Source: a virus
Virus record (IMG/VR): IMGVR_UViG_3300030060_002740
Coordinates: 28,414 to 92,413 of that record
DNA length: 64,000 nucleotides
Reading direction: 5' to 3' (one strand)
Shown one piece after another: positions 1 through 64,000 of this stretch. How positions within the stretch are numbered: position 1 is the stretch's first letter; the number at the start of each line of letters is the position of its first letter. A model generated the notes under the pieces. It made no database searches. It had not been told where the DNA came from and was given only the letters and a program-made list of their open reading frames with translations. A program made the translations under genes and the position numbers.

Positions 1-78
1 TATCTGCCAAGTGTTCGGGAACAGGCTCATCCTCTTTACCACAAAGAGTCTTTCCTAGTATTGAGAAGTGAATGTACT

Positions 79-234
79 TCACTCCTCCTCCTCCATCTTA
101 ATCTTTACATCTTTTATCTCTCTAACTAACCACTTCACAGTAGCAGAGTCAACATCTCTTCTATTGACTATGTTCAGAGCCTTTTCCAATCCTCTTAGTT
201 TACCCATGAGATAGAACTTGTAGTCAGGAGTCAA
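79..234 (-). CDS. small hypothetical protein (51 aa, TTG start)
   Basis: Read manually as MTPDYKFYLMGKLRGLEKAL...; start overlaps the stop of 231..413. Confidence 0.45.
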   Translation of the reverse strand: MTPDYKFYLMGKLRGLEKALNIVNRRDVDSATVKWLVREIKDVKIKMEEEE

Positions 235-413
235 GACATAGCCCTCCTCAATCTCTCCGGTAGAACGACTTCATTCTGACACTTATCACAACATCTACCA
301 ACTACAATCGGTTCTGCATTGTGTCCATCTGCCCAATAGGGAGTTCCATCTTCCTTGTAGTGGATATCAATGGGTTTTCCACAGATATCACATGTCTTCA
401 TCTCAATCTTCAT
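231..413 (-). CDS. small Zn-finger protein
   Basis: CDICG...HNAEP...CCDKC; overlaps neighbouring genes. Confidence 0.6.
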   Translation of the reverse strand: MKIEMKTCDICGKPIDIHYKEDGTPYWADGHNAEPIVVGRCCDKCQNEVVLPERLRRAMS

Positions 414-655
414 TCTTCTTTCCCCCTATATGCCGGATGTTTCTTTGGTAAACGGTGTAGTCTACTTGTGATTAGTTTCTGCATTTGACGAGCAATCTCA
501 CCACTTCCATCTTCCCAACGCTTTACCAATCTAGGGTACTTATCATCTTCTTTGTATTGATGTACCATCTTCTCCTCTAACTCAGACAAGTCAATCTTAT
601 CCATTAGATGTTTAAGCACTTCATACTCAACGTGAATCTTTGAACCTGCTCTCAT
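410..655 (-). CDS. hypothetical protein
   Basis: 81-aa ORF with 4-bp overlaps on both sides. Confidence 0.6.
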   Translation of the reverse strand: MRAGSKIHVEYEVLKHLMDKIDLSELEEKMVHQYKEDDKYPRLVKRWEDGSGEIARQMQKLITSRLHRLPKKHPAYRGKEE

Positions 656-1242
656 ACGTTCAACACCATCTTATCTGCAACATTCTCATTATCAATGAAC
701 CATCTTTGAATCCACTGAGAAGCAACACCTGCAATTGCAATCTGCATACAGTTCACTTGTTCAGCACTACCATCCCAATCTCCACCTTGACAGGAGAAAG
801 AACCTTCTGAACCTGCTAACAAATCATCAACTAGATTCTCGTTGACCTTGTAAGAGATTAGTGCGGCGTTTCTGCCTTGCGCTCTCAAATCTAACCACTT
901 GAGTTTAGCGTCATCACCGTATCCTTGACGGTACAACATTCTTCTTACGGCTAAGTTATCTGCACAACAGATTACCAAATCATATCCTTTCAGTTGCTTT
1001 TCGACTAAAACCAAAAAGGGCTGTTCATCTACTAATTTCAACCCATTGACCTTCAATCTTTCATTGACGGCACTTACTTTGGTTTGACCCACTGTATCGG
1101 GGATGTAGTTCTGATATGTCAGATTCTTCTCTTCTAACTTATCATCGTCAAATACTGTTATGTCGTATATTCCTATGCGGGAAAGGGAGTCAATCAAATA
1201 ACTACCAATTCCACCTGCTCCTATTATCATTATCTTTCTCAT
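652..1242 (-). CDS. ThiF/MoeB/E1-like adenylyltransferase (ubiquitin-like activating enzyme family)
   Basis: IIGAGGIGS nucleotide-binding loop, DDDKLEEKNLTYQ, GQTKV, CCADNLAVR; candidate catalytic Cys in SFSCQ. Confidence 0.85.
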   Translation of the reverse strand: MRKIMIIGAGGIGSYLIDSLSRIGIYDITVFDDDKLEEKNLTYQNYIPDTVGQTKVSAVNERLKVNGLKLVDEQPFLVLVEKQLKGYDLVICCADNLAVRRMLYRQGYGDDAKLKWLDLRAQGRNAALISYKVNENLVDDLLAGSEGSFSCQGGDWDGSAEQVNCMQIAIAGVASQWIQRWFIDNENVADKMVLNV

Positions 1243-1251
1243 TTTTATTCC

Positions 1252-2163
1252 TCAAATTACTATTGCATTTTGCATTATATCATTCAATCCATATAGATGA
1301 ATGTTCTTTCTTTCTATTCCCAACATCTCACAAATAATATCAGTGTGATTACGTAGTGTTACCTCTGATACACTGAAATGTTGCTTTACGTCTATTTGCC
1401 TTATCGGTGTGTTAGTCAGTTTACCTACCATCCACAGTGTTGTTGCTAATTGGCTATCGGCAAACCTCAAATCTCTTTCATTGTATTTGTTCTGAATAAA
1501 CTCAACGAAATTGAAGTAGTCTCTTCTATCTTTAACCGACTGATAGTTTGATTCAAACCAATCCAAGAACCCCGTCACCATGTTGTGTATATCTCTTTCA
1601 GCAAAGATATGTGACTTCCTGTAAAACTTGGCAACCTTCTTTGCTATTCTTGAAACCCTTCTCATCTCTATACCGCTTGTCTTAACAAAGTCCTTCAATG
1701 AAACATTGCCATTATCCATCAACATGAAATATGCTAAACCTGCTGCCCTGTCATCTATCGAATGCCCCCGAAATATCTGATGTTGCATTAGCCGTTGGTA
1801 TAGGTATATTACATGGTCAACGTCTATTGCATCACCACTCTTGTAAGGAGACATGAACATAACACACAAACGATGTGCTTGAGCATCGGTTTTACTATGG
1901 TACTGTTTATCTGAAACAACTCTTCTTTGAAGTTTAGATAGCATATGCTTTCTTGTCAGTATGTTCTGCTCGTTGAAATTACCGACAAATGACCCCAAGG
2001 TTCTGTTATTATCAATAGAGTGTGTAAATTCACTGTTATGTGTTGCACGAACAGTCTCCTCAAACATATCGCAATTCAAGACTAAACCACAATCAGAACA
2101 TATTGTATATCCTAATCGCTCATCGAACTCAGACGAGTTTGAACCGCACTCCGAACACTTCAT
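1252..2163 (-). CDS. tfb: transcription initiation factor IIB (TFB)-like protein
   Basis: N-terminal Zn ribbon CSECG...ICSDCGLV, then two cyclin-like repeats (IFRGHSIDDRAAGLAY; VSEVTLRN). Confidence 0.8.
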   Translation of the reverse strand: MKCSECGSNSSEFDERLGYTICSDCGLVLNCDMFEETVRATHNSEFTHSIDNNRTLGSFVGNFNEQNILTRKHMLSKLQRRVVSDKQYHSKTDAQAHRLCVMFMSPYKSGDAIDVDHVIYLYQRLMQHQIFRGHSIDDRAAGLAYFMLMDNGNVSLKDFVKTSGIEMRRVSRIAKKVAKFYRKSHIFAERDIHNMVTGFLDWFESNYQSVKDRRDYFNFVEFIQNKYNERDLRFADSQLATTLWMVGKLTNTPIRQIDVKQHFSVSEVTLRNHTDIICEMLGIERKNIHLYGLNDIMQNAIVI

Positions 2164-3476
2164 TTTGAAGCCTCCCTTTTGCGAGCGATGTATAGGTTTT
2201 CCTTCTCTCTAGTCCAAGACTTGAGTTTTGACATATCTAAACGATATTCAGGGTCTTCTCCACGTTTAACTGCTGAATCCACGTGAGTTCTTATAGTGTA
2301 TATTTGTTTAGCAGATGAAACATCATTCATCAAAGCCAATGCTCTTGCAGTTAGTTGGTCGCCAATGCTTGAGTTCCTATGGATGTTATCAATACAGATA
2401 GAACCACTAAGAGCATGTCCTTTCCAAGAACCTGATTTGTTGGCTTGACCTTCAACCATTTTACCAATCATGTATGTGTTAACATTCTGATGTCCTTGCT
2501 TCATTCCCCTTTTCTCGTCAACAACAACCCAATCTGCAACCTTGCCTCTAACAAAGAGAGCCTTGTTCAATGGATTCCTAAACTGAACTAGGCGAATCTG
2601 AGGGTATTCCGCATCCATCTCATGTAGTAACTGTGTTGCTCTATCCTCAACCATGTCCTGTTTCCTGTTTTGCATTAACCATGCTACACAGAGTTTGTTC
2701 TGAACATCAGTTGGTGGTTGACCCATAAGCAGTCTCCATAACTTAGCGGGTGTTGCTCTATACCAAACCTTAGATTTAGATTGATTGTGTCTGAAAGTGT
2801 TCAAAAACACATTCAAATCCTTTAGTGTGATAGCACCCCACACACCTTCTGAAATCTCCAAAGCACATTCATCATTGCTAATCAATTTTGTATTGATTAA
2901 CACTTCTTGTCTTGTTCCTTCACTGTAAAAGTGATAGGGTGAACGGTTCTCAATAGCATGAAGAACATTAGGTGGGAAATGTATAACCTTCTCGATGTAG
3001 TCATCCATTGTGTCTACATTACGAACAAATGCTCCCCTCATGATTATCTTAGCAAGAGTAACTGCCAAATCCTTCTTTGGTATTCTCTTACCATCTATGT
3101 GATGTTGTGTTCCCTTTCTACCGTATACAATGAAACACTCTCCATCTCTGTACTTGAATCCCATAGTACACATGTAATTGTCATTGTTGGTTTTAGGAAT
3201 GAGGTTCATTGCAACACTATCCGCAAGTATCTTCTGAACAGGATTATCGTATTTACCATGTTCTAGGGATGGTCTTGACGATTGAAGTGAAAACTCACCA
3301 AATTGATTCAGGTTACTTGGTTTGTATCTTACTCTGCTTTGACCATCAACTGTACGACTCACACCCGCTCTATACAAGGATGTAAAGTGTTTCTTCTGTC
3401 CTGTTCTGAACAAGAAACTACTTGTCACCCAACCCTTTTCGTCGCCTATTGATGGGATTCTGTATTTTATTTTCAT
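2160..3476 (-). CDS. hypothetical protein (~438 aa) with a C-terminal GSICID motif (possible E2/UBC-like domain)
   Basis: Start re-assigned to MKIKY at 3476, after a GGAGG RBS; function uncertain. Confidence 0.6.
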   Translation of the reverse strand: MKIKYRIPSIGDEKGWVTSSFLFRTGQKKHFTSLYRAGVSRTVDGQSRVRYKPSNLNQFGEFSLQSSRPSLEHGKYDNPVQKILADSVAMNLIPKTNNDNYMCTMGFKYRDGECFIVYGRKGTQHHIDGKRIPKKDLAVTLAKIIMRGAFVRNVDTMDDYIEKVIHFPPNVLHAIENRSPYHFYSEGTRQEVLINTKLISNDECALEISEGVWGAITLKDLNVFLNTFRHNQSKSKVWYRATPAKLWRLLMGQPPTDVQNKLCVAWLMQNRKQDMVEDRATQLLHEMDAEYPQIRLVQFRNPLNKALFVRGKVADWVVVDEKRGMKQGHQNVNTYMIGKMVEGQANKSGSWKGHALSGSICIDNIHRNSSIGDQLTARALALMNDVSSAKQIYTIRTHVDSAVKRGEDPEYRLDMSKLKSWTREKENLYIARKREASK

Positions 3477-3765
3477 TATTATTTTCCTCCTTTTTCCAAA
3501 ATTCTGTATCGCCATAATTGTGATGATACCAACAATCTCTTTCGATTGCTTCTGCAAGTTCTTCCATTGATTTGAAGGTTGAATGACCTCCAATAATGAT
3601 ACGTTTCATACCTCTGTAAAGATATCTGTAAGTACATTGACCCGTCTTATACAGGGTAAATTTACGATGTAGTTGCGATACTTGCGGAACGCCAATACAA
3701 CTTTCTTTCATTCTATTTTCATAGAAGACAAAATCTCTTGGTTTGATTAGTATTTCAGATTTCAC
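3418..3765 (-). CDS. hypothetical protein
   Basis: ORF between RNR and 2160..3476; probable GTG start at 3765 with GGTGGAG upstream. Confidence 0.5.
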   Translation of the reverse strand: MKSEILIKPRDFVFYENRMKESCIGVPQVSQLHRKFTLYKTGQCTYRYLYRGMKRIIIGGHSTFKSMEELAEAIERDCWYHHNYGDTEFWKKEENNNENKIQNPINRRRKGLGDK

Positions 3766-5647
3766 AAACTCCACCGGCACAGGCTAGTTCGCCTTGTAGA
3801 TTGGTGGAGTCTTCGTATTCTTTAACCTCACTCAAGTCAATTGAGTGGAGTTTACTAACGAGACTGTCGTATTCCAATAGGGTTATTTCTTCCATAGGTG
3901 CTTGTTCGTATGTACCCCCATCATAAGGTAGGAAGGCCATACCATTGTAGTATTCTCTGTTATCCCAAAGCCACTCGGTAACTCTCTTCCATTCAACATC
4001 ACGAACATACACTGTTGCTGATACGTTATGTGTATTATTTCCACGAACATGTCCAGTCTTTACCCATCCCTTTGATACTGCCTTAATCCTGTTAAGCATA
4101 CCAATAGCATCTTCATCACTACGAATTATCGCGGAAGTGTCGGGTATCTTTTGTGGGATAGTCAGCACTGCATCTCCATATGACATCCTATCGTCCTCAA
4201 TAAGTTCGGGCAGTTTCTCAACAAGATAAGGATATATTGCTTCTCCCTTGCCTATACGGATTCTTCTTGCATAGTAATATCCATACCATGCGTGAATACC
4301 ACTTGATGTACCTAACACACAACTGGTTGTTCCGGCAGGTTTGACACAAGTAGTTCTTGCTGCCGTATTAATACCAAACATTCTTGCAAATCGTTGATTG
4401 ATTATCTTAACCATATTCGCCCCATCTGATAACCACTCATCCTTTACCTTCTGACTAGCAATGCCAGTCATAGAAACACCAATCAGAGCATCCTTCTCTG
4501 TTGTTCTTTGCCATATGCCTCTAAGGTAGTGGAAGTCGGTGTATGTTGCTTGTAATGTACCCAAGAAAGATGCTGCCTCTACTCTTTGGAGGAAGTCTTC
4601 TTTTGACATTACACTCGATACGTTCACTTCACACAAATTACAAAATTGATAGGGTCTAAGTGCTATCTCACAACAGGGGTTAGTTCCCCAATCCTTGTCG
4701 TTGGATAGGTAAATACCGGGTTCACCGCTACCACTCTTTTCTATCTTCTTCATCAAAGACTTGAATGTGTCTTTGTCTAACTTATGGCGTAGTAGAACTG
4801 CTGAATTGTTTGCTCTACCTCTTTGTGGGTTTAGTTCCCACCAACTTCCTGATTTGCATAGAGCCATCTCTTCATCATCAGCACTGAATAGGCTGATTAA
4901 CGCTGCTCTGCGAATACCACCTGCTAAAACTGAATCAGCAATATGACAAACCATATCGTGAACTTGTATGGATGTCATCTTGTGACCATTAGGCATATCT
5001 CTCAACATACCTTCAATGATAGTAAGGCATATTCTAAGTGGTTCAGGACCGGGTGCTTTTCCTCCACTTGTCTTCAGTCTTGCACCCTTTGCTCTTATGT
5101 CTGAATAATCGAATCTTGGGCTTGCAGTTCTCTTGCCAGTATAACTGTTGAAAAGAACCTTAATTGCGTCAGCCCAACCTTCTATTGAATCTTGAATCTT
5201 ATATCTGTAAGTTCTATCAGATAGTGGTTGTTGAATATGTGGTAGTTTAGCCACATGATGTCTCTGAACAGAATAACCTACACCTGTTCCACCTAATAGT
5301 AAGAACATTGCTTCACTGAAAGATGTAATGTTATCAATTGGCATGTACGCACAATTGTATATTCTGTTCGGAGACAATTCAACTGGTTTACCTGCGAATT
5401 GCATTGACCTCATTGAAGGCAATACTTTCTTAGTCATCACAAAGTTATCATATACATAGTGTATCTGTTTTTCAACAACAGTTCTGTTTGTCTGACTAAT
5501 TGGAAGTGCCTTAATATGCTTAAGGTGCATATCTCGGTTCCTGTTACATATCTCTTCCCAAGTTTCCTTCCTTTCTTCTGCTTCGTTCCATTTTGCGTAT
5601 TTGGTATTAACCACTATTTCTGATAATACTTCATTTCCTAATTTCAT
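3755..5647 (-). CDS. nrdJ: class II (adenosylcobalamin-dependent) ribonucleotide reductase
   Basis: PSMRSM, YNCAY, LLGGTGVG, GGIRRAALI, TNPCCEI active site, CVKPAGT, C-terminal CAGGVC redox pair. Confidence 0.93.
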   Translation of the reverse strand: MKLGNEVLSEIVVNTKYAKWNEAEERKETWEEICNRNRDMHLKHIKALPISQTNRTVVEKQIHYVYDNFVMTKKVLPSMRSMQFAGKPVELSPNRIYNCAYMPIDNITSFSEAMFLLLGGTGVGYSVQRHHVAKLPHIQQPLSDRTYRYKIQDSIEGWADAIKVLFNSYTGKRTASPRFDYSDIRAKGARLKTSGGKAPGPEPLRICLTIIEGMLRDMPNGHKMTSIQVHDMVCHIADSVLAGGIRRAALISLFSADDEEMALCKSGSWWELNPQRGRANNSAVLLRHKLDKDTFKSLMKKIEKSGSGEPGIYLSNDKDWGTNPCCEIALRPYQFCNLCEVNVSSVMSKEDFLQRVEAASFLGTLQATYTDFHYLRGIWQRTTEKDALIGVSMTGIASQKVKDEWLSDGANMVKIINQRFARMFGINTAARTTCVKPAGTTSCVLGTSSGIHAWYGYYYARRIRIGKGEAIYPYLVEKLPELIEDDRMSYGDAVLTIPQKIPDTSAIIRSDEDAIGMLNRIKAVSKGWVKTGHVRGNNTHNVSATVYVRDVEWKRVTEWLWDNREYYNGMAFLPYDGGTYEQAPMEEITLLEYDSLVSKLHSIDLSEVKEYEDSTNLQGELACAGGVCEI

Positions 5648-5810
5648 TTCTCTCCCTCTCTTGAGTGTGTTGATAAGGGCTTCTCACCCTCTTGGCATCT
5701 TACCCGATACTAGGATTATGTAGGCTTAACCTAAGCCTAATAATAGTTACCACTTGTGCATATAAATACCCACAAATGGGTTACGTGTTTCGACATTGTT
5801 ACTTGCTTAT

Positions 5811-6014
5811 TTAGCAAGAGCCGCCGACGATGGCAGGTACAAGGTTAACGGAATCAACGGCTGACCAATCAATGCTTGTCACATTTTCTCGGCTTACCAT
5901 ATCTCCATCAACATACACCCAATGAGTTGGGTGGTCTGCTATCTGCTCAATCATCTCAGCACTGGTTACTTCCAGTTCTGTGTGGCCTGTTTCATTCAAT
6001 ATTCTCAGTTTCAT
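5811..6014 (-). CDS. ubiquitin-like (beta-grasp, SAMP/ThiS-like) protein with GG plus a 2-aa extension
   Basis: 67 aa; WVYVDG and C-terminal VNLVPAIVGG-SC, typical of ThiS/MoaD/SAMP ends. Confidence 0.7.
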   Translation of the reverse strand: MKLRILNETGHTELEVTSAEMIEQIADHPTHWVYVDGDMVSRENVTSIDWSAVDSVNLVPAIVGGSC

Positions 6015-6288: not shown

Positions 6289-7455
6289 TCATCTCCTCTC
6301 GTTTAACAGTGCGTCAATAAACTTAGATGCACTCTCTTTTGTTAGCGAGTCTGTTTCTCCTTCATAGCCCAATCTTCGTAAGTACCTAACTTGCTTCTCA
6401 GTAGCAGGTGTCTCCTCCGCAGTATTGGCAGTATTGTCTGTAAAGAGTATACGCTTTAGGGTTTCGGATTGTTTCTCTGTTGGTTCTGCACCACGAATGA
6501 ATCTCCTTTTCATATCTCTGAGGAAGTTCCTTTCCCATCTGTTAGAGCCATCTTCATGAGAATCAAACACTGGTAGTCCAAAGTAAAGACAGGCTTCAAG
6601 GAACTTACGCTCCCTCCAATCTTCTTCCATAAGACCACGCATCTTATCCTTAATCTCCAAGTCAAGAGTCTCCAAGAACACCTTTCTATCCTCAATATAC
6701 TTGTCTTCAACTTCAATCTGTTTTAGATAGTCGTCAATCAGTATAGAGAACAAATCCATATCTTTCAGAAGTTTATCATTAGGATACCCTCTTGTGTTAA
6801 TCTGAGCCTTCTTGTTGTCGGGATGATTCCATCTCCAAACAATAGAAGCCATCTTGTAATCTTCTCGACCAAACTTACCCGAACCAGTTTTCCTGATGTA
6901 TGTTACAGGGCGATACTCTTTCAATTCGTCATCATAGTATTGTTTACCTGTCTGCCTTACATTCAACCTCAAGTCCAAGTCTTTGATTTCATCGAATAAC
7001 TCAGTGAAACCATCACCATTCTCAATCCACCACGCTTCTTTGATTAGAGTTTCAACTGCTTGCTTTTTCCATTGCTCAATCTTTTCCTCTGTAATAGCGG
7101 ATAGTGGCATGTTCAAGGTTTCAGCCATGTGTCTGAGAACCATCCAGTTGTTGATACAGGTTGAACCTACAATCTCCAATGTTCCATTCTCAGTGTTCTC
7201 AATCTCAAAGTTGTAAACAATGTCCTTACCACAAAGACAGTGATGTGGATGATTGCTTGGGTGATTCTCGATAATGTGTCTATGAGTTCCATAGATGGTC
7301 TTACGCCAAACTCTACCTGTTATCCTCCATTCCTTCTTTGCCTCTTCGTAGTTGTCTGATACAGACAAATCAAGAAGCCTTCTTGTTAGTGCCGGATAGT
7401 GGTGACTTGTTTCAGCAGTGTTATCTACCATTTGTATATCACTAATACCATTCAT
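6289..7455 (-). CDS. hypothetical protein with a Cys/His Zn-binding motif and a C-terminal PATEKQ...LTKESAS helical motif
   Basis: HCLCGKDI...VGSTCI; 388 aa. Confidence 0.65.
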   Translation of the reverse strand: MNGISDIQMVDNTAETSHHYPALTRRLLDLSVSDNYEEAKKEWRITGRVWRKTIYGTHRHIIENHPSNHPHHCLCGKDIVYNFEIENTENGTLEIVGSTCINNWMVLRHMAETLNMPLSAITEEKIEQWKKQAVETLIKEAWWIENGDGFTELFDEIKDLDLRLNVRQTGKQYYDDELKEYRPVTYIRKTGSGKFGREDYKMASIVWRWNHPDNKKAQINTRGYPNDKLLKDMDLFSILIDDYLKQIEVEDKYIEDRKVFLETLDLEIKDKMRGLMEEDWRERKFLEACLYFGLPVFDSHEDGSNRWERNFLRDMKRRFIRGAEPTEKQSETLKRILFTDNTANTAEETPATEKQVRYLRRLGYEGETDSLTKESASKFIDALLNERR

Positions 7456-27176: not shown

Positions 27177-28835
27177 ATGGTAGAAGAAAGAAGAAGATTT
27201 AGTTTAACAAATTTGTTTAGGCAAACTACGCCTAAGCCCGCAGATAGAACAGTATACAATCCGGGTATACAAGAGAGAGATAATTCATATCTTTTGACTA
27301 GTCCAATCATCTATCACATAGTATCTCAATCAACTATTGTTAGAACCTGTATCACTCAGTTGAAACAGGAGATATTCAGAAGAGGATATCATTGGGATTC
27401 TAAGTTTGCTCTAAAATGTAGAAATTGTGGTAAGGAACACGAAAACACAGTAAAGCAATGTGTTGAATGTGAAAGCACTGATTTGGCAAAGCCTAATGTT
27501 GAACAACTAAAATATGCTAAAGAGTTCTTAGATGGGTATGTGAATTGCTCAGAGCAGATGTTTATTGATGTCCTAAAGGAACTTGAAGATGACTTGAATA
27601 TAATGGATGACGCATACTTGGTAATGGTAAAGGAATACTATGCCGATAACAACTCCAAGGTCAGGATGCACAGAATAAAGGAAGTATACAGAGGCGACCC
27701 AGTTACTATGCACATCTATTCAAACGATTTGGGAGAAAGAGGCAAAGCCGGATATACTTGTTTAAGACATAGAGATAGAGTATATTCAAGTCCAACTGAA
27801 CTTTGCGAAACTTGTAATTCAGAACTCTATCCTATTCATTATGTTAACAGGGTAAATGGTGAAGAACAGTATTTCGTAAAGGGAGAAGTTCTACACTTCA
27901 GCAAATACTCTCCAAGTAGATTATATGGACTTTCACCTATAATCACTCTATGGAATAATGTTACAACATTGATTGCTATGGAGAATTATGTTAACTCATC
28001 ATATACCAAAGCAAGAATGCCGAAGGGACTTCTTGCTGTTCAAACAAGAAACATGGATTCGATGAAGTCATTTTGGCGTGGTGTCAAAGAAAAGATGGAG
28101 CAAGACCCACACTTCATACCTGTAATGGGAATAGAGGGAGAAGGCGGTAAGGGTTCTGTTGAATGGGTCAAGTTCATGGACAGTCTAAAAGAAATGGATT
28201 ACATACAAGTTAAGGATGATTTGAGAGATAGGATTTCAGCATTCTATGGTGTGAGTAAAATCTTCATGGCAGATAACTCTGCAAGTGGTGGATTGAACAA
28301 TGAGGGTATGCAAGTATTAGTTACTAATAGAGCAGTTGAAATGGCTCAAACAATTTGGAATAACTATGTGTTCCCATTTATGACGGAAGAATTTGGTATA
28401 ACTGATTGGCGTTTGAAACTACCACCATCCGAAGAAGAGGATGAAATTGCAGTTCTACGTAAAAGAGAGATAGAAGTGAATGTCGCTGCTGCAATTAAAA
28501 ACTTAGGATTTGAAGTAGACATGGATGATGAAGGTGGATTCATTTACACAAAACCTGAACCTAAAGAACCAACAGAAGGAGAAGGTGAAGAAGGTAGCGA
28601 AGAAGTTGAATTAGACCCATACGCCGGAACTGATATTGATGCCTCTCAACTAGGACAATTACAAGAACAAATGATGGGTGGTGGAAATAAGTCTGAGAGC
28701 AAACCTCAAGAGAACCCCCCCGCTACGAGAAACAAACCATCTATGGCAACTGGGCCGGATAAAAGATTTACAGGATTACCAAGAGAAGCCGGAAATGAAA
28801 ATGTTGACGAAAGAACAGAGAGGAGAGTAGGATGA
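27177..28835 (+). CDS. portal protein with Cys-rich insertions
   Basis: Downstream of TerL; EVLHF...YGLSPI, ISAFYGVS, LNNEG portal-type motifs; acidic C-terminal tail. Confidence 0.85.
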   Translation: MVEERRRFSLTNLFRQTTPKPADRTVYNPGIQERDNSYLLTSPIIYHIVSQSTIVRTCITQLKQEIFRRGYHWDSKFALKCRNCGKEHENTVKQCVECESTDLAKPNVEQLKYAKEFLDGYVNCSEQMFIDVLKELEDDLNIMDDAYLVMVKEYYADNNSKVRMHRIKEVYRGDPVTMHIYSNDLGERGKAGYTCLRHRDRVYSSPTELCETCNSELYPIHYVNRVNGEEQYFVKGEVLHFSKYSPSRLYGLSPIITLWNNVTTLIAMENYVNSSYTKARMPKGLLAVQTRNMDSMKSFWRGVKEKMEQDPHFIPVMGIEGEGGKGSVEWVKFMDSLKEMDYIQVKDDLRDRISAFYGVSKIFMADNSASGGLNNEGMQVLVTNRAVEMAQTIWNNYVFPFMTEEFGITDWRLKLPPSEEEDEIAVLRKREIEVNVAAAIKNLGFEVDMDDEGGFIYTKPEPKEPTEGEGEEGSEEVELDPYAGTDIDASQLGQLQEQMMGGGNKSESKPQENPPATRNKPSMATGPDKRFTGLPREAGNENVDERTERRVG

Positions 28836-58423: not shown

Positions 58424-58762
58424 ATGATAGCAGATGAAGGAGTATCGGATATAATAGCGAATTACATTCAAAGTAATTACACGAAAATAAAAGTCGGAAG
58501 TGGAGGTGATGCTCCATCAGAGGCAGATACAGAATTAGATTCCTTTGTTGCAGAAAAGACTGTTACGCCTTCTTTAATAGGAACTGTAATGACTTGGACA
58601 GTTGAGTTTACTGGTGCAGAGATTGGTCTTGAAGGTATATCAGAACTAGGAATTTTCAAGTCATCAGGAGATAAAATGTTAAGTCGGGTCACATTCAGCA
58701 ATACAGGAGTGTTGGCATCAGCAGACACATTGACTATAACAATTAGAGTGGAGGTAGGTTAA
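58424..58762 (+). CDS. small tail/baseplate protein (tail-collar-like)
   Basis: IKVGSG...DTEL...ISELGIF...MLSRVTF pattern. Confidence 0.65.
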   Translation: MIADEGVSDIIANYIQSNYTKIKVGSGGDAPSEADTELDSFVAEKTVTPSLIGTVMTWTVEFTGAEIGLEGISELGIFKSSGDKMLSRVTFSNTGVLASADTLTITIRVEVG

Positions 58763-61700
58763 TGTCACTAAGAACTAATCCAAATTTTATCAGCACATTG
58801 TCTGCTTCTCCCACACTCAGAATAACTGATGGAACAGACAGTTTGCATAGTGGTCTGATTAATTCATTGAATATCGCTACTGGTGGTAATAGAATAGTAA
58901 ACGGGTTTAACATTACATTATCTCAGGGAACAACTTACACAGTTTATACGATTTCTTCGGCAACCAATACATATCTTAGAGATGGTATTTTCTCTACTAT
59001 CGCACAAAACACCGCAGTAACTCAATCAATTACAATGGCTTCATCGAGTAGTCCAACATATCTAATGTTGGTAATTGCATCAGGAAGTCCTGATACCCTT
59101 GCTTTGAGAGAACACACTGTTGCTAACAAGGTAGCCCCTCTATCAGCAGATGATATTCCAATAGCAATAATAGAAGTTGCAGCAAACAGTTCTGCAAAGG
59201 CCACGGATAGAAGAGTCCAGTTCTTAGGGTATGAACAAACAAATCAAGGTCTTAGTATAATAGATAACAATGCTGAAACACTGAAAATAAATAAAGAGGG
59301 AACTATAACTAAGGGAGGACAAACAATTACCTTCCCTTCATCAGCAGGTACTCTTGCTCTTACATCGGATATACAATACACTTCTGCAATACCAAATGCA
59401 ACTGCATCTCAAACAGGTTTGGCTACATCTACTCAGATAACTAAGTTAGATGGAATCGCCGCCAATGCAAACAACTACTCTCTTCCTACTGCGGCTGCGG
59501 GAACATTAGGTGGAATAAAAGTAGGAACTAATCTCAGCATAAATGGTAGTGGTGTCCTTTCTGCTACTGATACTAATACTCAACTAAGTAATGAGGAAGT
59601 TCAAGATATTGTAGGTCAAATGTTTGATGGAAACACCGAAACAGGAATCAGTGCAACATATCAAGATGGTGACGGAACTATTGACCTAAGCGTTACTGCA
59701 TTGAATGATGATGTTAGTGTAAGCAATTTGGAAAGTAGACTACCACAAATAGACACTCCTGTAACAATAGGAAATGGTGTAGGAGTTACAATGGGAGGTA
59801 ATCTAACTGTTAGCGGTAATCTTACAGTAGCCGGAGAAACAACTACACTTGATGTAACTAACCTAGCAATAGAAGACCATACTATAATACTGAATAAGAA
59901 CCAAACAGGAAACTCAAACACTGATGCAGGGGTAGAGGTAGAAAGAGGGGACTACACAAATGTTCAGATTAAGTGGAATGAAACAACTGATAGGTGGACT
60001 TTCACCAATGATGGTAATAATTTCTTTAACATACCAATACCCTCAGAACTAGCAAACCCATACACTCATCCAACATACTCTACAACTAACATTGATACGA
60101 CTGGCGCAGAAATAGTAGATAGCATAACCACTAACTCTACTGGACATATTACTGCAATGGCTAAGAGAACACTAACTCTTGCTGACTTAGGGTATACAGG
60201 AAGTACAGATGCAAACACATATGTTCACCCTAATCACTCAGGAGATGTAACTTCCAGTGCAGATGGTGCAACTACAATATCCGCTAATGCAGTTACCACC
60301 GCTAAGATATTGAATAGTGCGGTAACTGCTGATAAACTAGCAAGCAACTCAATTACAAATGTCAAGGTAGATTCTAACGCTGCAATTGCACAAAGCAAGA
60401 TTAGTGGTTTAGTTGCATCTCTTGCTGGAAAAGAACCTGCTCTCACTATCAGTGATGGTCTTGATAGAACAGGTACTACATTGAAGTTAGACATAACAGG
60501 GCTAACTAATGAAAATGCGATAGACAGAACTGCCGACTTTATTGCTTACCACGACAATTCTGTTGGTTTGAGAAAGGTAAATCTTGCAAATGTATTCTCA
60601 AAACTAACTGCAAGTGACATTCCTGATTTGAGTGGTTCATATCGAGCAGTTGGAACGCAGATAGTAAATGCTGATGTTAGTAATACTGCGGCAATAAGTG
60701 CAGATAAGATTGCGGCGGGAACAACCAACAAACTATTCACAAGCACATTAGAGGCAAAATTAGCAGGTATTGCAACAGGTGCAGAAGTCAACGTTCAAGC
60801 AAATTGGAGTGAATCGAGCAATAGTTCTGATGCGTATATTCAGAACAAACCAACAATACCAAGCGGTAATCAGATTATTGATTGGACTGCAAGTGGAGCG
60901 GGAACGATTCATGCTTCAAACTACACCAATACAACATACTCTGTTGGTGATGGTGGGTTATCACAAAAGAACTTCACCACTGCTTTGCATGATAAGTTAG
61001 TTGGAATCGCAGCAAACGCCAACAACTTCTCTCTCACAAATGGTTCTGTAACTAATGCTCACCTTGCAGGTAGTATTGCTAATTCCAAACTGGATGATAT
61101 AGCACAAAGCAAAGTAACTGGATTAGTGACTGCTCTAAACTCTAAGGTTGAGAATCTTGGTGATTTGAGTGTAACTGCATCTGCTTCTGAACTTAACATA
61201 TTGGACGGTGTAACAAACGTAAGTGCTACTGAGATAGGCTACTTGGATGGAGTTACCTCATCAATACAAACTCAATTGAACTCTAAACTCTCTTCACTAG
61301 CAGTTACAGGATTAAGTGATATTTCTACTTTTGATACTAGTATAGGCAGTGGAGCGTCAAACAGTGGATTAGCAAGCACTCTAGCGATTAAGACCTATGT
61401 AGATGGCAAAGCAACAGTTGACACTACTTACTCACTAACAACCGCAGATGGAACAGATACTAATGGGGATGACGACCCTACATTCAAGACAATCAATCTT
61501 GCTGATAACACAAGTGGTTCAGGTAGTGTAGTTCACTTAGCGGTAGGAGCAGGTCTTGGTATCTCAAGAAATGCCGCCAACAACACACTAACATTGACCA
61601 ATACTGGTAGTTCTCTAACAAAGGCAACACTAACACCCATTCTTGCCTCTTACAATGGAACAGATACATTGAACATAGGAGATACAGATAATGATACTAC

Positions 61701-64000
61701 TGTAAATATTAGGGGTAATCTAAATGTCTTGGGGACTACTACAACTGTAAACCAAACCCAAGTTAATGTTCAGAATGCTTTTGTCTTTGAGGGTGCTAAT
61801 GCTAATGACTATGAAACCACTTTGACAATTACAGAACCTACTGCTGATAGAACAATCACTCTACCGAACATAACTGGAACGGTAATTACTTCGGGGGATA
61901 CATCAACTATCACTAATAGCATGATAGCAAGCACTGCAATCACTAGTGCTAAACTTGCAAGTAACGCTGTATTGACAAGTAAAATAGCATCAAACGCAAT
62001 AAGCACTGCAAAGATTGCTAATAGTGCAGTAACCTCTGATAAGTTAGCAGCGTCTTCTGTAACCACTGCTAAACTCAACGATGACTCAGTTACCGTAGAT
62101 AAGATAGACGGTGTAACTTCTTTTGGTAGTGGAAGCATTATCAGTTCTGCTGAGAGAACGAAACTAACTGGAATAGAAACTTCTGCTGATGTTACTGATG
62201 CAACAAACGTAGCCTCCGCCGGAGCAGTAATGGATTCAGATTTCAGTTCTAATGGGTTCATGAAAAGAACAGGAGCAGGTAGTTATACTGTTGATAACAA
62301 CACATATCTCACTTCTTTAGCAGTTACAGGACTCTCAGACATCAATGCCTTTGATACCGATTTGAGTAGTGTCAGTGCATCTCACGATACTTTGGCTTCT
62401 GCTAAAGCAATAAAGGCATACGTGGATGCTAATGGAGGAGGAGGAGGGGGAGGCTCTTTCAACTCATTCTACCTATTAGATGGAACAGGAACAAGCGTAA
62501 ACGTCACTGATGGAAAGTACGTTCAATTTACACAAGGAACAGGAATAACCGCTACATGGACTGATACTAACAGTGGAGCATCAACTGACCCATTTGACAT
62601 CACACTTACAAACACAGGTGTAACATCTAATGTTGCGGGAACGGGAATAGGGGTAAGTGGTGCTACTGGTGCAGTAACAATAACAAATACAGATTTGGGT
62701 TCTTCACAGAACATATTCAAGACAGTAGCAGTTAGTGGACAAACTAATATCGTTGCAGATTCCAATAGTGATACTCTCAACTTCGTTGGTGGAACAAACG
62801 TAACAATAGCAACTGATGCTTCTACGGATACAATTACAATCAATGCTGCTGATACAAACACTCAGATTAGCCAAGAACAAGTTGAGGATTATGTTGCGGG
62901 ACTGCTTACAGCAGGTAGTAACATTACTTTGAACTATTCCGATAATAATGCTTCAGCAGGTACTCTTACAATAGCGGGAACTGCTAACGATGACGTATCT
63001 GTTACGAATCTAAAGTCTGCTCTTAACTCAGATTTTGGTGGAGATTTCACCATTGGTAATCAGTCAGACGATACTGTAACTGTCAGTGGTTCACTTACTG
63101 TTGGGGCTGATTTGATTGTCAGTGGGGATACTGTAACTGTAAATACTTCAACTCTAACAGTAGAAGACCCGTTGATTTCTCTTGGGAAGAACAATTCTGC
63201 TGATTCTGTTGACTTAGGATTCTATGGAAGGTACAATGATGGAAGTAATATTCGATACAGTGGTTTGTTCAGAGATGCTTCAGATAACGACAAGTGGAAG
63301 TTATTCTCATCAACAGGTAACTCAAATGCAGAACCTACAAGCACAGTAAACACAACGAGCGGTTTCGCATTAGGAACACTAGTCGCTTCTACCTTTGAAG
63401 GTGGGTTAGTTGGTAATGCTACTACTGCAACAACATTGGCTACTGCGCGAACAATAGCAGGTGTATCTTTTGATGGTTCAGCAGACATAGCATTGCCTTT
63501 GAACAACCTCACAGGAACACTTGCAGTTTCAAGAGGAGGAACAGGATTAACTTCTATTGCTTCACTATTGAACAGTAACGTATCACTAGCGGTTGCAGAC
63601 TTATCTGATATTGCTTCCCTTGATACTGATATAAGTTCAGTTAGCGGTAGTGATGACACTCTTGCTTCTGCTAAGGCCATCAAAACGTATGTAGATGCTC
63701 AGTTTGCAGGTGCAGGTTCAGGAGATATGACTGGTGTTGATATCACCGCAGGTAACGGTATCAGCGTAACTCAAAACAATGTATCGAGCGGGAACTATAC
63801 TGCAACTATTTCCGCATCAGGAATAACCACTGCACAGTTAGCGGGTACGGCTCTACAAACAAGTTCAGAATCTTTCAACAACAACGATACGAGTTTGATG
63901 ACTTCTGCTGCTATTGAAGATAAGATTCTATCATACGGATATGGAACAGGTAGTGGTGATGGGGACATAACCAGTGTAGTTGCCGGAACAGGTTTGAGCG
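58762..64000 (+). CDS. long tail fibre protein (>1745 aa, truncated by the window end)
   Basis: Missing from the ORF track, presumably because there is no in-window stop; ATG overlaps the previous TAA; spot checks of the frame show no stops; T/S/G/A-rich with AVTTAKI pentapeptides, KTKLTGI and AIKTYVD fibre motifs. Confidence 0.8.
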   Translation, partial: MSLRTNPNFISTLSASPTLRITDGTDSLHSGLINSLNIATGGNRIVNGFNITLSQGTTYTVYTISSATNTYLRDGIFSTIAQNTAVTQSITMASSSSPTYLMLVIASGSPDTLALREHTVANKVAPLSADDIPIAIIEVAANSSAKATDRRVQFLGYEQTNQGLSIIDNNAETLKINKEGTITKGGQTITFPSSAGTLALTSDIQYTSAIPNATASQTGLATSTQITKLDGIAANANNYSLPTAAAGTLGGIKVGTNLSINGSGVLSATDTNTQLSNEEVQDIVGQMFDGNTETGISATYQDGDGTIDLSVTALNDDVSVSNLESRLPQIDTPVTIGNGVGVTMGGNLTVSGNLTVAGETTTLDVTNLAIEDHTIILNKNQTGNSNTDAGVEVERGDYTNVQIKWNETTDRWTFTNDGNNFFNIPIPSELANPYTHPTYSTTNIDTTGAEIVDSITTNSTGHITAMAKRTLTLADLGYTGSTDANTYVHPNHSGDVTSSADGATTISANAVTTAKILNSAVTADKLASNSITNVKVDSNAAIAQSKISGLVASLAGKEPALTISDGLDRTGTTLKLDITGLTNENAIDRTADFIAYHDNSVGLRKVNLANVFSKLTASDIPDLSGSYRAVGTQIVNADVSNTAAISADKIAAGTTNKLFTSTLEAKLAGIATGAEVNVQANWSESSNSSDAYIQNKPTIPSGNQIIDWTASGAGTIHASNYTNTTYSVGDGGLSQKNFTTALHDKLVGIAANANNFSLTNGSVTNAHLAGSIANSKLDDIAQSKVTGLVTALNSKVENLGDLSVTASASELNILDGVTNVSATEIGYLDGVTSSIQTQLNSKLSSLAVTGLSDISTFDTSIGSGASNSGLASTLAIKTYVDGKATVDTTYSLTTADGTDTNGDDDPTFKTINLADNTSGSGSVVHLAVGAGLGISRNAANNTLTLTNTGSSLTKATLTPILASYNGTDTLNIGDTDNDTTVNIRGNLNVLGTTTTVNQTQVNVQNAFVFEGANANDYETTLTITEPTADRTITLPNITGTVITSGDTSTITNSMIASTAITSAKLASNAVLTSKIASNAISTAKIANSAVTSDKLAASSVTTAKLNDDSVTVDKIDGVTSFGSGSIISSAERTKLTGIETSADVTDATNVASAGAVMDSDFSSNGFMKRTGAGSYTVDNNTYLTSLAVTGLSDINAFDTDLSSVSASHDTLASAKAIKAYVDANGGGGGGGSFNSFYLLDGTGTSVNVTDGKYVQFTQGTGITATWTDTNSGASTDPFDITLTNTGVTSNVAGTGIGVSGATGAVTITNTDLGSSQNIFKTVAVSGQTNIVADSNSDTLNFVGGTNVTIATDASTDTITINAADTNTQISQEQVEDYVAGLLTAGSNITLNYSDNNASAGTLTIAGTANDDVSVTNLKSALNSDFGGDFTIGNQSDDTVTVSGSLTVGADLIVSGDTVTVNTSTLTVEDPLISLGKNNSADSVDLGFYGRYNDGSNIRYSGLFRDASDNDKWKLFSSTGNSNAEPTSTVNTTSGFALGTLVASTFEGGLVGNATTATTLATARTIAGVSFDGSADIALPLNNLTGTLAVSRGGTGLTSIASLLNSNVSLAVADLSDIASLDTDISSVSGSDDTLASAKAIKTYVDAQFAGAGSGDMTGVDITAGNGISVTQNNVSSGNYTATISASGITTAQLAGTALQTSSESFNNNDTSLMTSAAIEDKILSYGYGTGSGDGDITSVVAGTGLS

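Follow-up and report, generated by a model that had tools for sequence, protein, structure and literature searches.

A predicted ubiquitin-like protein-conjugation cascade in a magrovirus, with a homologous counterpart in the Poseidoniales

Introduction

Why a virus of marine archaea should encode a minimal E1-like enzyme together with a small protein carrying a Gly-Gly close to its C-terminus is the question raised by the locus described here. It lies in a stretch of 64,000 nucleotides (the window; positions 28,414 to 92,413 of the IMG/VR record IMGVR_UViG_3300030060_002740) from a magrovirus, a virus abundant in the ocean and infecting marine archaea, whose 92.4-kb genome is 96% complete according to CheckV. 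A first-pass annotation of the sequence had read the two proteins as a sampylation-like system serving protein conjugation rather than sulfur relay. We propose, with a probability of about 0.6, that the magrovirus encodes a four-part cascade conjugating a ubiquitin-like protein (Ubl), homologous to a chromosomal system of the Poseidoniales. The features concerned are the following:

652..1242, minus strand: minimal E1/ThiF adenylating enzyme, 196 aa (Pfam ThiF, E=1.7e-18)
1252..2163, minus strand: TFIIB-like protein, 303 aa (N-terminal Zn ribbon; Pfam Zn_Ribbon_TF, E=1.2e-7)
2160..3476, minus strand: candidate E2, 438 aa (UBC-like C-terminal domain in the model; gene context)
3755..5647, minus strand: class II (B12-dependent) ribonucleotide reductase, 630 aa (PHROG 367, E=3e-127)
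5811..6014, minus strand: ubiquitin-like protein precursor, 67 aa (beta-grasp model; Gly-Gly conservation)
6289..7455, minus strand: conserved 388-aa protein (synteny; directly upstream of the Ubl in viruses)
Contig 27364-27864, outside the window: JAB/JAMM protease, about 166 aa from the ATG (complete JAMM site)

Results

The Pfam match of the 196-aa protein (67.1 bits for a cut-off of 28.1) places it in the ThiF family. It contains the GAGGIGS nucleotide loop (residues 8-14), D32xD34, N40..Q44, K55 and D95-N96..R100, the invariant residues being derived from 20-37 viral sequences. Since its only cysteines are residues 92, 93, 151 and 165, the enzyme is devoid of a CxxC pair, in agreement with the first-pass annotation. 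The loop Cys151, located within GSFSCQ (codon 790-792), is invariant, and this CQ cysteine is likewise invariant in the host E1s. The solved structures best matched by the family profile are Cap2 (4e-10), UBA5, MoeB, MccB and Uba4, with BubCD among the weaker matches, and the PADLOC Cap2 'E1-E2' models are matched as well (2e-14).

The 67-aa protein is encoded on the same strand, 4.57 kb from the E1, and terminates, as had been described, in VPAIVGGSC. Neither frame is a chance one, since E1 homologues at 50-97% identity are found in 36 related IMG/VR contigs and the small Ubl ORF in 26, its relative position unchanged. The suspected beta-grasp fold is borne out by prediction, in which the protein appears nearest to ubiquitin: the AF2 model, of moderate confidence (pLDDT 73), follows the order beta-beta-alpha-beta-beta-(short helix)-beta, and ubiquitin or NEDD8 accounts for almost all of the Foldseek top 50 (E 5e-3, probability 0.96-0.99, TM 0.45-0.52). 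The fold-search scores are modest (VIA Z 4-5.1), with rows consisting mostly of beta-grasp proteins. Structural neighbours include ubiquitin, NEDD8, MoaD, ISG15 and bacterial Ubls such as PDB 8tyz, as well as ThiS, TtuB, CysO, SAMP1, Urm1 and BubA. At the sequence level, ubiquitin gives the best PDB match of the family profile (single-domain E about 0.1), and an alignment to Pfam ThiS, under the cut-off (E=0.019), reaches the end of that profile.

Only Ser-Cys separates the Gly64-Gly65 pair (nt 5820-5825) from the stop codon. The pair is present in 26 of 26 viral homologues, ahead of one or two residues variable in identity and number, and is near-invariant across 88 representatives of the family, some of which terminate exactly at the Gly-Gly. 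It is specified by seven different codon pairs, with non-coding DNA downstream, and the constraint therefore acts on the protein. The wider family comprises tandem poly-Ubl precursors with two to three repeats, each ending in LVGG (P0001, P0010 and P0011), a 1251-aa member with nine matched stretches (P0026), Ubl-E1 and Ubl-Ubl-E1 fusions, and members in which the Ubl is joined to an unassigned domain of about 250 aa. The Ubl-E1 and Ubl-Ubl-E1 fusions would have to be cut at the Gly-Gly, and they connect the Ubl with this E1. As the last Arg/Lys read from the viral sequence is R42, trypsin would leave a 23-residue remnant, which makes the di-Gly proteomics formerly suggested unsuitable for this Ubl. 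In a second protein noticed for its "GG-x" ending, this ending is most simply a ribosome-binding-site footprint.

The first-pass annotation had recorded that no JAB protease was seen and had advised a search to the left. Its statement is literally correct for the window, but the contig carries a JAB gene a short way beyond the edge, about 549-1049 bases to the left of base 1. The product is assigned to the JAB family by its intact active site (E...HxHx7SxxD, in which E, HTHP, S and D are invariant) and by profile matches to the deubiquitinases AMSH-LP, AMSH and Sst2 and to an archaeal Rpn11-like protein (5e-5). The suggested look at related viruses found it together with the E1 in 34 of 36 loci. 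The module, situated in the leftward early/replication block, is thus larger than the pair initially noticed, with the JAB and E2-like genes added. The Ubl, E1, E2-like and JAB genes are syntenic across about 30 related magrovirus contigs, with the order p388-Ubl-(RNR)-E2-like-TFB-E1-...-JAB; in the most divergent of the related contigs (L038, 15.3 kb), the E1, JAB and E2-like genes are present and the Ubl was not detected.

The TFIIB-like gene, whose TFIIB repeat match is weak (Pfam, 0.031), lies between the E2-like gene and the E1 in nearly all related viruses. The ribonucleotide reductase, matched by the Pfam RNR barrel and RNR-II insertion domain, stands between the Ubl and the E2-like gene; it is not a member of the module, since eight related viruses (L018, L020-22, L026, L027, L029, L030) lack it at that place. 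The 388-aa protein, separated from the Ubl in some viruses by a small 80-aa ORF, gave no match in Pfam or PHROG and viral clusters only in the protein atlas; it is at most a putative associate of the module.

The 438-aa protein starts with MKIKY at position 3476, a TTG at 3593 having been rejected. We consider it a probable E2, on the basis of a moderate structural match and the gene context. In the AF2 model (pLDDT 82.9), a UBC-like domain occupies residues 271-414 (nt 2235-2666), and the alignments of residues 271-418 with E2s span the complete chains from one end to the other, for example UbcH7 1-154 (119 aligned, Z 4.6). Of 50 structural rows for this region, about 30 are E2, UEV or RWD proteins, with Z scores (3.4-4.9) lower than the level regarded as safe by the search tool. 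Cys361 (codon 2394-2396, motif CIDN..S.GDQ..RA..L.ND), the only invariant cysteine of the protein (21 viral and 3 host sequences), lies about 10 residues ahead of the first long helix to follow the beta-meander, the place of the cysteine in E2s. The protein matched nothing in Pfam (including UQ_con and Prok-E2), PADLOC or, by sequence, the PDB, and the canonical HPN motif was not found in it. The 'HQN' of the window's protein is not conserved and precedes the last core strand.

The Poseidoniales (Marine Group II), the order of the hosts, also possess homologues of all four module genes, arranged as poly-Ubl tandems, Ubl-Ubl-E1 fusions and compact rows. One host-type contig (L042) carries E2-like/Ubl/E1/JAB, and another (L043) TFB-like/E2-like/Ubl-Ubl-E1/JAB, where the TFIIB-Zn-ribbon gene ahead of the E2-like gene is 35% identical over 75 aa to the viral TFIIB-like protein (E=4e-7). 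The JAB adjoins the E1 in five of the five host MAGs examined, and of 81 Poseidoniales genomes sampled, about 50 have the minimal E1 (E<=1e-42), several of them on large contigs. Virus and host share 26-32% identity for the E1, 28-40% for the Ubl and 32-34% for the JAB. The viral cascade is, as judged from sequence, homologous part by part to the chromosomal system.

Discussion

It can be hypothesised that the 67-aa beta-grasp protein is synthesised as a precursor, behind whose Gly65 the JAMM/JAB metalloprotease would cleave to expose the Gly-Gly; the same protease probably reverses conjugates too. The minimal E1 would then adenylate Gly65 with ATP and may hold the Ubl on Cys151 as a thioester, before it would be handed to Cys361 in the UBC-like domain of the 438-aa protein. 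The N-terminal part of the latter, about 270 aa of unassigned fold, may select the targets, by analogy with the E3-less E2s of bacterial Bil systems, and the Ubl would finally be attached to lysines of host or viral proteins.

The masked Gly-Gly and the JAB are also found in true sulfur carriers, CysO/Mec and QbsE/QbsD, and one may ask whether, during infection, the matured, adenylated Ubl would instead become a thiocarboxylate that feeds a thiolation pathway of the host (tRNA thiolation, molybdopterin or a thio-metabolite). The alignment to the end of the ThiS profile, the MoaD, ThiS, TtuB and CysO neighbours and the MoeB and Uba4 matches of the E1 are consistent with this proposition, and a viral carrier might in principle serve the sulfur enzymes of the host. 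We nonetheless regard it as improbable: ubiquitin, not ThiS or MoaD, heads the sequence-profile and Foldseek lists, and no rhodanese domain was found in the E1. Conjugation is favoured because the genome yielded no MoaE, ThiG, ATP_bind_3 (TtuA/NcsA-type ATPase), rhodanese or cysteine desulfurase, which extends to the 96%-complete genome the earlier remark that sulfur-pathway genes are not adjacent, and because the linked E2-like protein with its invariant cysteine, the poly-Ubl genes and the Ubl-enzyme fusions suit conjugation systems.

Conjugation might also proceed without an E2, as in the SAMP/UbaA and Urm1/Uba4 systems. The viral E1 alone would then activate the JAB-matured Ubl and pass it to targets, and the 438-aa protein would have another function, such as that of target, adaptor or unrelated cysteine enzyme. 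The lack of a sequence-level E2 signature and of HPN, together with the low Z scores, speaks for this alternative, which we hold to be unlikely given that in three different genomic settings, one of them a compact four-gene row, the cysteine-bearing domain is found together with Ubl, E1 and JAB, that its sole invariant cysteine is placed as in E2s, and that E2-type folds prevail among its matches. Moreover, the classical His is commonly missing from prokaryotic E2-like proteins (PMC1779556). Another alternative is that the host Ubl system is antiviral, as Bil is in bacteria, and that the viral copies subvert it: the viral JAB would free viral proteins of host Ubl, while the viral Ubl, E1 and E2-like protein would act as decoys or re-aim the host machinery. 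The homologous system is widespread in the host order, in bacteria, Ubl systems defend the cell by tagging structural proteins of phages (PMC11601596), and the many JAMM 'deSAMPylases' of archaeal Borg elements have been read as counter-defence (PMC12660748). This seems somewhat less likely still: the virus retains the full conserved set (E1 active site, E2-like cysteine, Ubl Gly-Gly) and not the protease alone, which counts against a decoy because a decoy would not need conserved active sites, and there is no sign that the host system is a defence, one copy (L039) being set among housekeeping genes.

The conjugating cascade that we prefer is best read as a virus-encoded variant of the type represented by Bil/Bub in bacteria and SAMP in archaea. 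With SAMP/UbaA/HvJAMM1 and Urm1 it shares a small modifier ending in Gly-Gly, with SAMP1 and Urm1 among the structural neighbours, a single-domain E1, a JAMM protease and the archaeal setting. Sampylation, however, proceeds without an E2 and also serves sulfur transfer, and Zn CxxC motifs are present in UbaA, whereas the viral E1 has none, an E2-like gene is linked, and the set is virus-encoded with a Poseidoniales-specific host counterpart. The earlier reading as conjugation is supported, with the refinement that the label 'sampylation-like' implies the absence of an E2, whereas the candidate E2, being conserved, brings the module nearer to the Bil/Bub or a eukaryote-like layout. In type II CBASS, E1, E2 and JAB (Cap3) cooperate as well, and its Cap2 (E2-E1) is the best solved-structure and PADLOC match to the viral E1 profile; the alignment is nevertheless confined to about 95 residues at the N-terminus, what Cap2 activates is not a beta-grasp Ubl but the C-terminus of a cGAS-like enzyme, and no CD-NTase is present in the magrovirus.

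The antiphage Bil system (BilABCD, 'ISG15-like'), which joins its Ubl to lysines, has the same four roles of Ubl, E2, JAB/JAMM peptidase and E1, assigned here by sequence or model, and likewise no E3, its E2 being thought to choose the targets itself (PMC11601596). The bacterial Ubl 8tyz among the structural neighbours is a further point in common. Bil is, however, cellular and antiviral, BilD is a large IAD-AAD-CYS E1 where the virus has a single adenylation domain, the viral E2-like protein has a large N-terminal extension, and no PADLOC model matched beyond the Cap2 E1 part. Bub systems (6E/DUF6527) possess Ubls of one to three beta-grasp domains, a JAB that frees the Ubl from Ubl-E2 fusions and an E1 reduced to a small adenylation domain (PMC11601596); the tandem and fused Ubls of the wider family, the BubCD match and the BubA neighbour recall them. 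In contrast to Bub, which uses serine oxyesters and the DUF6527 serine protease, the viral E1 and E2-like protein each have an invariant cysteine, the genes are separate and no DUF6527 was seen. Among mobile elements, the lambda/T1 tail assembly proteins I and K pair a C-terminal-Gly Ubl with an adjoining JAB peptidase (PMC1779556), and Borg JAMM proteases are proposed to undo host tagging (PMC12660748). Having neither E1 nor E2, these cannot conjugate by themselves, and in lambda the pair belongs to the tail module, unlike the magrovirus set, which is located in the early/replication block.

The viral cascade could serve to redirect host proteins, for example to the proteasome, to control transcription via the linked TFB-like protein, or to counter the host's own Ubl system. 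A viral tag set beside a related host set points to an undescribed virus-host contest, or a hijack, waged by protein tags.

Genomic setting of the module

The genes for the ubiquitin-like protein (Ubl), the E1/ThiF enzyme, an E2-like protein and a JAB protease are linked on the minus strand of a single viral contig of 92,413 bp, which is 96% complete according to CheckV and whose bases 28414-92413 are covered by the window. Replication genes of archaeal type lie within the module and to its left: a split family-B polymerase, RFC, an ATP-dependent ligase, a class II ribonucleotide reductase (RNR) and genes for PC4-like and TFIIB-like proteins. The related contigs are IMG/VR viruses of 80-100 kb, the homologues on the host side bear Poseidoniales names, and an RNR is reported for magrovirus group B (PMC5434244). 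We read the contig as a magrovirus. The viral gene order is p388, (p80), Ubl, (RNR), E2-like, TFB-like, E1, variable small ORFs, 77-aa Zn finger and JAB.

Features of the module and its surroundings (window positions unless stated; L002 is a sequence slice of the viral contig)
652-1242, minus: E1/ThiF enzyme, 196 aa
1252-2163, minus: TFIIB-like (TFB-like) Zn-ribbon protein, flanked in the viruses by the E2-like gene and E1
2160-3476, minus: E2-like protein, 438 aa, start MKIKY (3476)
3755-5647, minus: class II RNR, between Ubl and the E2-like gene in only part of the related viruses
5811-6014, minus: Ubl, 67 aa
6289-7455, minus: conserved 388-aa protein, virus-only, adjoining Ubl; family search empty
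contig 28020-28253 (L002:10020-10253), minus: virus-only 77-aa Zn finger, about 160-393 bases before window base 1
L002:9873-10019, left of the window, minus: 49-aa ORF (MGKMGRRFQEM...), from the Zn-finger stop (TGAATG) to the JAB start
contig 27364-27864 (L002:9364-9864), minus: JAB, about 0.5-1 kb left of the window, from its JAMM motif and profile
L002:7507-7731, left of the window, minus: PC4/p15-like 74-aa protein, E=1.4e-5, slightly short of the cut-off
58762-63999, plus, cut by the contig end, and contig 3-4757, cut by the contig start: Gly/Thr/Ser/Asn-rich ORFs, both very long

The RNR is not found at the Ubl block in eight related loci and is therefore an insertion into it. In the 388-aa protein, a His/Cys cluster (HPHHCLCG...GSTC) is accompanied by a pair of 'TEKQ..L..L' repeats at the C-terminus. 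The 74-aa protein, whose gene adjoins that of the ATP-dependent DNA ligase, matches the ssDNA-binding domain of the eukaryotic and archaeal transcriptional coactivator PC4/p15. If the genome is circularly permuted, the two ORFs at the contig ends could belong to a single fibre-like gene whose product exceeds 3,300 aa.

A minimal E1 and a beta-grasp protein with a conserved GG

The first-pass annotation had proposed an E1/ThiF enzyme together with a Ubl whose C-terminal GG is masked. The 196-aa ORF lies where it was placed and belongs to the ThiF family (Pfam PF00899, E=1.7e-18; 67.1 bits, cut-off 28.1). Its Rossmann GxGxxG loop, GAGGIGS at residues 8-14, is invariant in 20 sequences, as are D32, D34, N40, Q44, K55, D95, N96 and R100 in the viral enzymes, D95 and R100 being shared by the host E1s; by analogy with MoeB and ThiF, we take these residues to bind ATP and Mg. 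The CxxC pairs of a Zn-binding site are missing, as had been noted, and the only cysteines are at positions 92, 93, 151 and 165. A Zn site of two CxxC pairs occurs in MoeB, ThiF, UbaA and Uba4, not in every E1-like protein, and does not define the superfamily. Cys151, the candidate for a thioester-forming Cys of the crossover loop, does not vary among the E1s of viruses and hosts and lies 56 residues after D95, a spacing that presumably resembles the Asp-to-Cys distance in ThiF and MoeB. The enzyme is present in 36 related viral loci at 50-97% identity, and its family forms 779 clusters at 90% identity in marine metagenomes.

The 67-aa ORF ends in VPAIVGGSC, as described before, and a small ORF occupies the same place in 26 related loci, that is, in every locus whose flank reaches the Ubl position except the most divergent one, the 15.3-kb viral contig L038, on which no Ubl was found even with a profile HMM. 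In each of the 26 viral homologues the C-terminus reads ...[AIVM]VGG and then Y, C, SC, IR, NQ, SL, L or IN. An HMMER scan of 1.84 billion representatives returned 88 Ubl relatives in which the GG is near-invariant, some stopping exactly at the GG and others continuing for 1-8 residues. Over 41 sequences, G64 is invariant and G65 is at least 90% conserved, with variable tails of 0-8 residues beyond. Since the GG is written in seven different codon pairs and is followed downstream by non-coding DNA, the constraint acts on the protein and not on a nucleotide signal. The relatives include tandem tri-Ubl proteins, Ubl-Ubl-E1 fusions and Ubl-E1 fusions, in which the GG is internal and the E1 portion passes the Pfam ThiF threshold (about 1e-17); no close relatives of two of these family members, P0006 and P0013, were found among viral contigs.

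The earlier proposal hung on a beta-grasp fold of the 67-aa protein as well as on conservation of its GG, and neither failed. The AlphaFold2 model, built on the 41-sequence alignment, has the order beta-beta-alpha-beta-beta-(short helix)-beta (pLDDT 73). The best 50 Foldseek matches in the PDB are ubiquitin or NEDD8 nearly throughout (E from 5e-3, probability 0.96-0.99, TM 0.45-0.52). An independent all-against-representatives alignment (VIA) gave Z values of 4-5.1 and mostly beta-grasp proteins among its 50 rows, including MoaD, ISG15, bacterial BilA and BubA, TtuB, ThiS, SAMP1 and Urm1. Ubiquitin is also the top solved sequence match of the family profile; with a single domain this match is weak (E about 0.1), and for polyubiquitin chains it is inflated. 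We assign a beta-grasp fold to the predicted structure with moderate confidence.

A JAB protease and its small neighbours

A masked GG calls for a protease, and the flank to the left of the window, where the first-pass annotation had advised looking, encodes a JAB enzyme with a JAMM motif. This motif, HTHPFGEAYFSGTD, has the form HxHx7SxxD; H102, H104, S112 and D115 are invariant in the viral family and the upstream E39 (numbering from the ATG start) is near-invariant. The single sequence stays under the Pfam Prok-JAB cut-off (18.7 vs 25 bits); the family profile gave matches at 5e-5 to 8e-4, to three JAMM deubiquitinases (AMSH-LP, AMSH and Sst2) and to an Rpn11-like protein of archaea. Co-occurrence in related viruses, the other check advised, is borne out: JAB is present in 34 of the 36 loci, the remaining two being cut by contig ends. 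The equivalent of the 49-aa ORF forms the N-terminus of JAB in other magroviruses, so that the present arrangement is a split or translationally coupled form.

The 77-aa Zn finger (CPxC...H...H, 'GTKRHAGGFIAGH.AYHEF'), which E1 and JAB always flank, is the most conserved among the small ORFs of the block, and its profile returned nothing useful from PDB sequences. In 35/35 homologues a conserved [M/L]GG stands one residue short of the C-terminus, and the protein was considered as a second GG modifier; this was rejected as the main reading, the GG coinciding with a Shine-Dalgarno site. The pair is encoded GG[A/G]GGA in 20 of 24 distinct loci; a single codon and the stop come next, and no more than 0-2 nt separate them from the ATG that opens the following cistron. 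The GGAGGA lies 7-9 nt ahead of that start codon, the ideal spacing for a Shine-Dalgarno site, and SD-like motifs precede 30% of the long ORFs here, compared with 5.6% of random windows. The GG-x end is better explained as the Shine-Dalgarno site for the next cistron.

A candidate E2

The 438-aa protein is conserved in all related loci. Its model (pLDDT 82.9) contains, at residues 271-418 and in this order, a helix, a beta-meander, a loop and three helices. This region can be aligned over the whole length of E2 chains, as with UbcH7 1-154 (119 residues, Z 4.6). E2, UEV and RWD proteins fill about 30 of the 50 rows for this region in two VIA runs, with Z values of 3.4-4.9 that are under the safe level of VIA; the 438-aa model is also larger than the size at which single domains score well. 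In Foldseek, these three groups were the only rows with notable probability (0.30-0.44 for E2s). Cys361 is the sole invariant cysteine of the putative UBC-like domain, within CIDN..S.GDQ..RA..L.ND, in 21/21 viral and 3/3 host sequences; it stands 10 residues before the first long helix (371-383), as does the catalytic Cys of E2s, an equivalence inferred from the order of secondary structure.

No Pfam family, UQ_con and Prok-E2 included, was matched at E<=0.1 by the viral protein or three host homologues, and the profile found no PDB sequence at E<=10. The family has no HPN motif upstream of Cys361, and because of this absence the protein was not filed as a canonical UBC member. The 'HQN' at 329-331 was rejected as an equivalent: its His is variable, it precedes the last core strand and host homologues have no counterpart. 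Prokaryotic E2-like proteins often dispense with the classical His (PMC1779556). We conclude that the 438-aa protein probably works as an E2. A comparison of its family profile with the domain fused to Ubls in the relatives P0042 and P0013 was not significant (probability <1%).

A related system in Poseidoniales

By cluster look-up, the tandem-Ubl and Ubl-E1 fusion proteins are listed at NCBI under Poseidoniales/Poseidoniaceae MAGs, and contigs of 1.4-1.6 Mb carry some of the relatives. Five MAG loci with a Ubl-E1 gene emerged when species-representative genomes were scanned, and in all five JAB (HTHPxGxAYWSxTD) follows directly; with the viral profile, the E2-like Cys core was recovered from three of these MAGs, and it is recognisable by eye in a fourth. 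At locus L042, E2-like (431 aa), Ubl (92 aa, ...LVGG+8), E1 (220 aa) and JAB (192 aa) form a compact row. At locus L043, which adjoins the host TYW1, genes for a T7-like RNA polymerase and a TFIIB-Zn-ribbon protein accompany E2-like (545 aa), Ubl-Ubl-E1 and JAB, and locus L039 has Ubl-Ubl-E1 and JAB amid housekeeping genes. Viral and host E1, Ubl and JAB share 26-40% identity. Of 81 sampled genomes of the host order, about 50 have a minimal E1 (E<=1e-42), in several cases on a large contig, and separate di-Ubl genes are present in many. Poseidoniales (genomes G001-G085, e.g. G061:C2:538558-539163) widely encode the minimal E1, di-/tri-Ubl genes, JAB and the E2-like protein, and most of the host genomes sampled have a homologous set on the chromosome. 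A literature search found no description of a cellular Ubl system of Poseidoniales.

Two further observations concern the neighbours of the host cassettes. The TFIIB-Zn-ribbon gene immediately precedes the E2-like gene in a host-type cassette (L043:4396-5472). On two Poseidoniales-type MAG contigs, the Ubl cassette is closely preceded by a gene for a single-subunit RNA polymerase of the T7/mitochondrial type (Pfam RNA_pol, E=2e-55), as follows.

L043:1441-4044: T7-type RNA polymerase
L042:2-895: T7-type RNA polymerase

Archaea do not usually have such a polymerase, which may be the sign of an integrated element or of a different family of viruses. A search for T7-like RNA polymerase (PF00940) gave no match in the viral genome of the module, nor in the control genomes.

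Discussion

A protein with a beta-grasp fold and a C-terminal GG that is adenylated by an E1 may serve either to modify proteins or to carry sulfur, and the first-pass annotation had favoured conjugation, a preference that the present results strengthen. Sulfur carriers with a masked GG and a JAB are known, so these two traits also suit a sulfur relay, whose partners might be encoded by the host. The virus itself offers none: the lack of sulfur-transfer genes noted beside the module extends to the entire 92.4-kb viral genome, in which MoaE, ThiG, a TtuA/NcsA-type ATPase, rhodanese and cysteine desulfurase were not found at E<=1, each of these families being detected in 12-14 of 14 control genomes by the same searches. 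Conjugation agrees with the tandem Ubl precursors, with Ubl-enzyme fusions that need cleavage, with the linkage to an E2-like Cys protein and with the place of ubiquitin as nearest neighbour. We consider a role of Ubl as sulfur carrier to be of low probability.

For conjugation, we hypothesise the following route. JAB would cleave the Ubl precursor after Gly65, which E1 would adenylate, possibly with formation of a Ubl thioester on Cys151. The Ubl could then be handed on to Cys361 of the E2-like protein, whose N-terminal 270 aa may choose the target, and be conjugated to lysines, a step that JAB would also reverse. The di-Gly proteomics suggested by the first-pass annotation would have to be adapted: with trypsin, the predicted remnant on lysines is 23 residues long (ENVTSIDWSAVDSVNLVPAIVGG) and not di-Gly.

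The layout is that of the bacterial Bil and Bub operons (PMC11601596) and of operon classes whose first prediction dates from 2006 (PMC1779556). It differs from them in being virus-encoded and archaeal, in its minimal, single-domain E1, in a new E2-like family and in the homologous system of the host lineage. The E1 architecture of Bil (BilABCD; PMC11601596) is not matched by the single 196-aa domain of the virus, and both the phage lambda-type Ubl/JAB pairs (PMC1779556) and the Borg JAMM proteases (PMC12660748) are without E1 and E2. The magrovirus papers examined do not mention ubiquitin, ThiF or JAB, and a literature search, which covered subscription journals incompletely, found no description of the magrovirus module.

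Related gene pairs occur in other phages. In the replication block of the Bacteroides phage crAss001 (gp76/gp77, locus L063), a 'metalloprotease' gene with a sub-threshold Prok-JAB match (E=5e-4) is directly followed by a gene of the ThiF family (E=8e-16) that bears the annotation 'thiamine biosynthesis protein'. E1-like genes resembling that of crAss001 are found in several crAss-like and jumbo phages, including the Xanthomonas jumbo phage PhiXhv-12 (locus L064). The pairing of E1 with JAB may be more widespread among phages than has been noticed.

We propose, with a probability of somewhat under one half (about 0.45), that magroviruses carry the first complete Ubl conjugation machinery of a prokaryotic virus (tag, E1, E2 and protease), a diverged copy of an undescribed and widespread Poseidoniales system, and that virus and host would fight, or the virus reprogram the cell, through rival tagging systems, with the linked TFB-like factor as partner or target. 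The TFIIB-like neighbours on both the viral and the host side may reflect a functional tie of the Ubl system to transcription factors. To our knowledge, prokaryotic Ubl conjugation has so far been cellular, as in archaeal sampylation and in bacterial Bil, Bub and CBASS defence. Among viruses of eukaryotes it is routine to steal components of the ubiquitin system or to encode them, and a full set of tag, E1, E2-like protein and protease on an abundant virus of ocean archaea would carry this virus-host theme into the archaea. The very small, separately encoded enzymes (196-aa E1, 67-aa Ubl) make in vitro work possible despite an uncultivated host and virus. The module also reveals an uncharacterised Ubl system in an archaeal lineage that is among the most abundant of the surface ocean.
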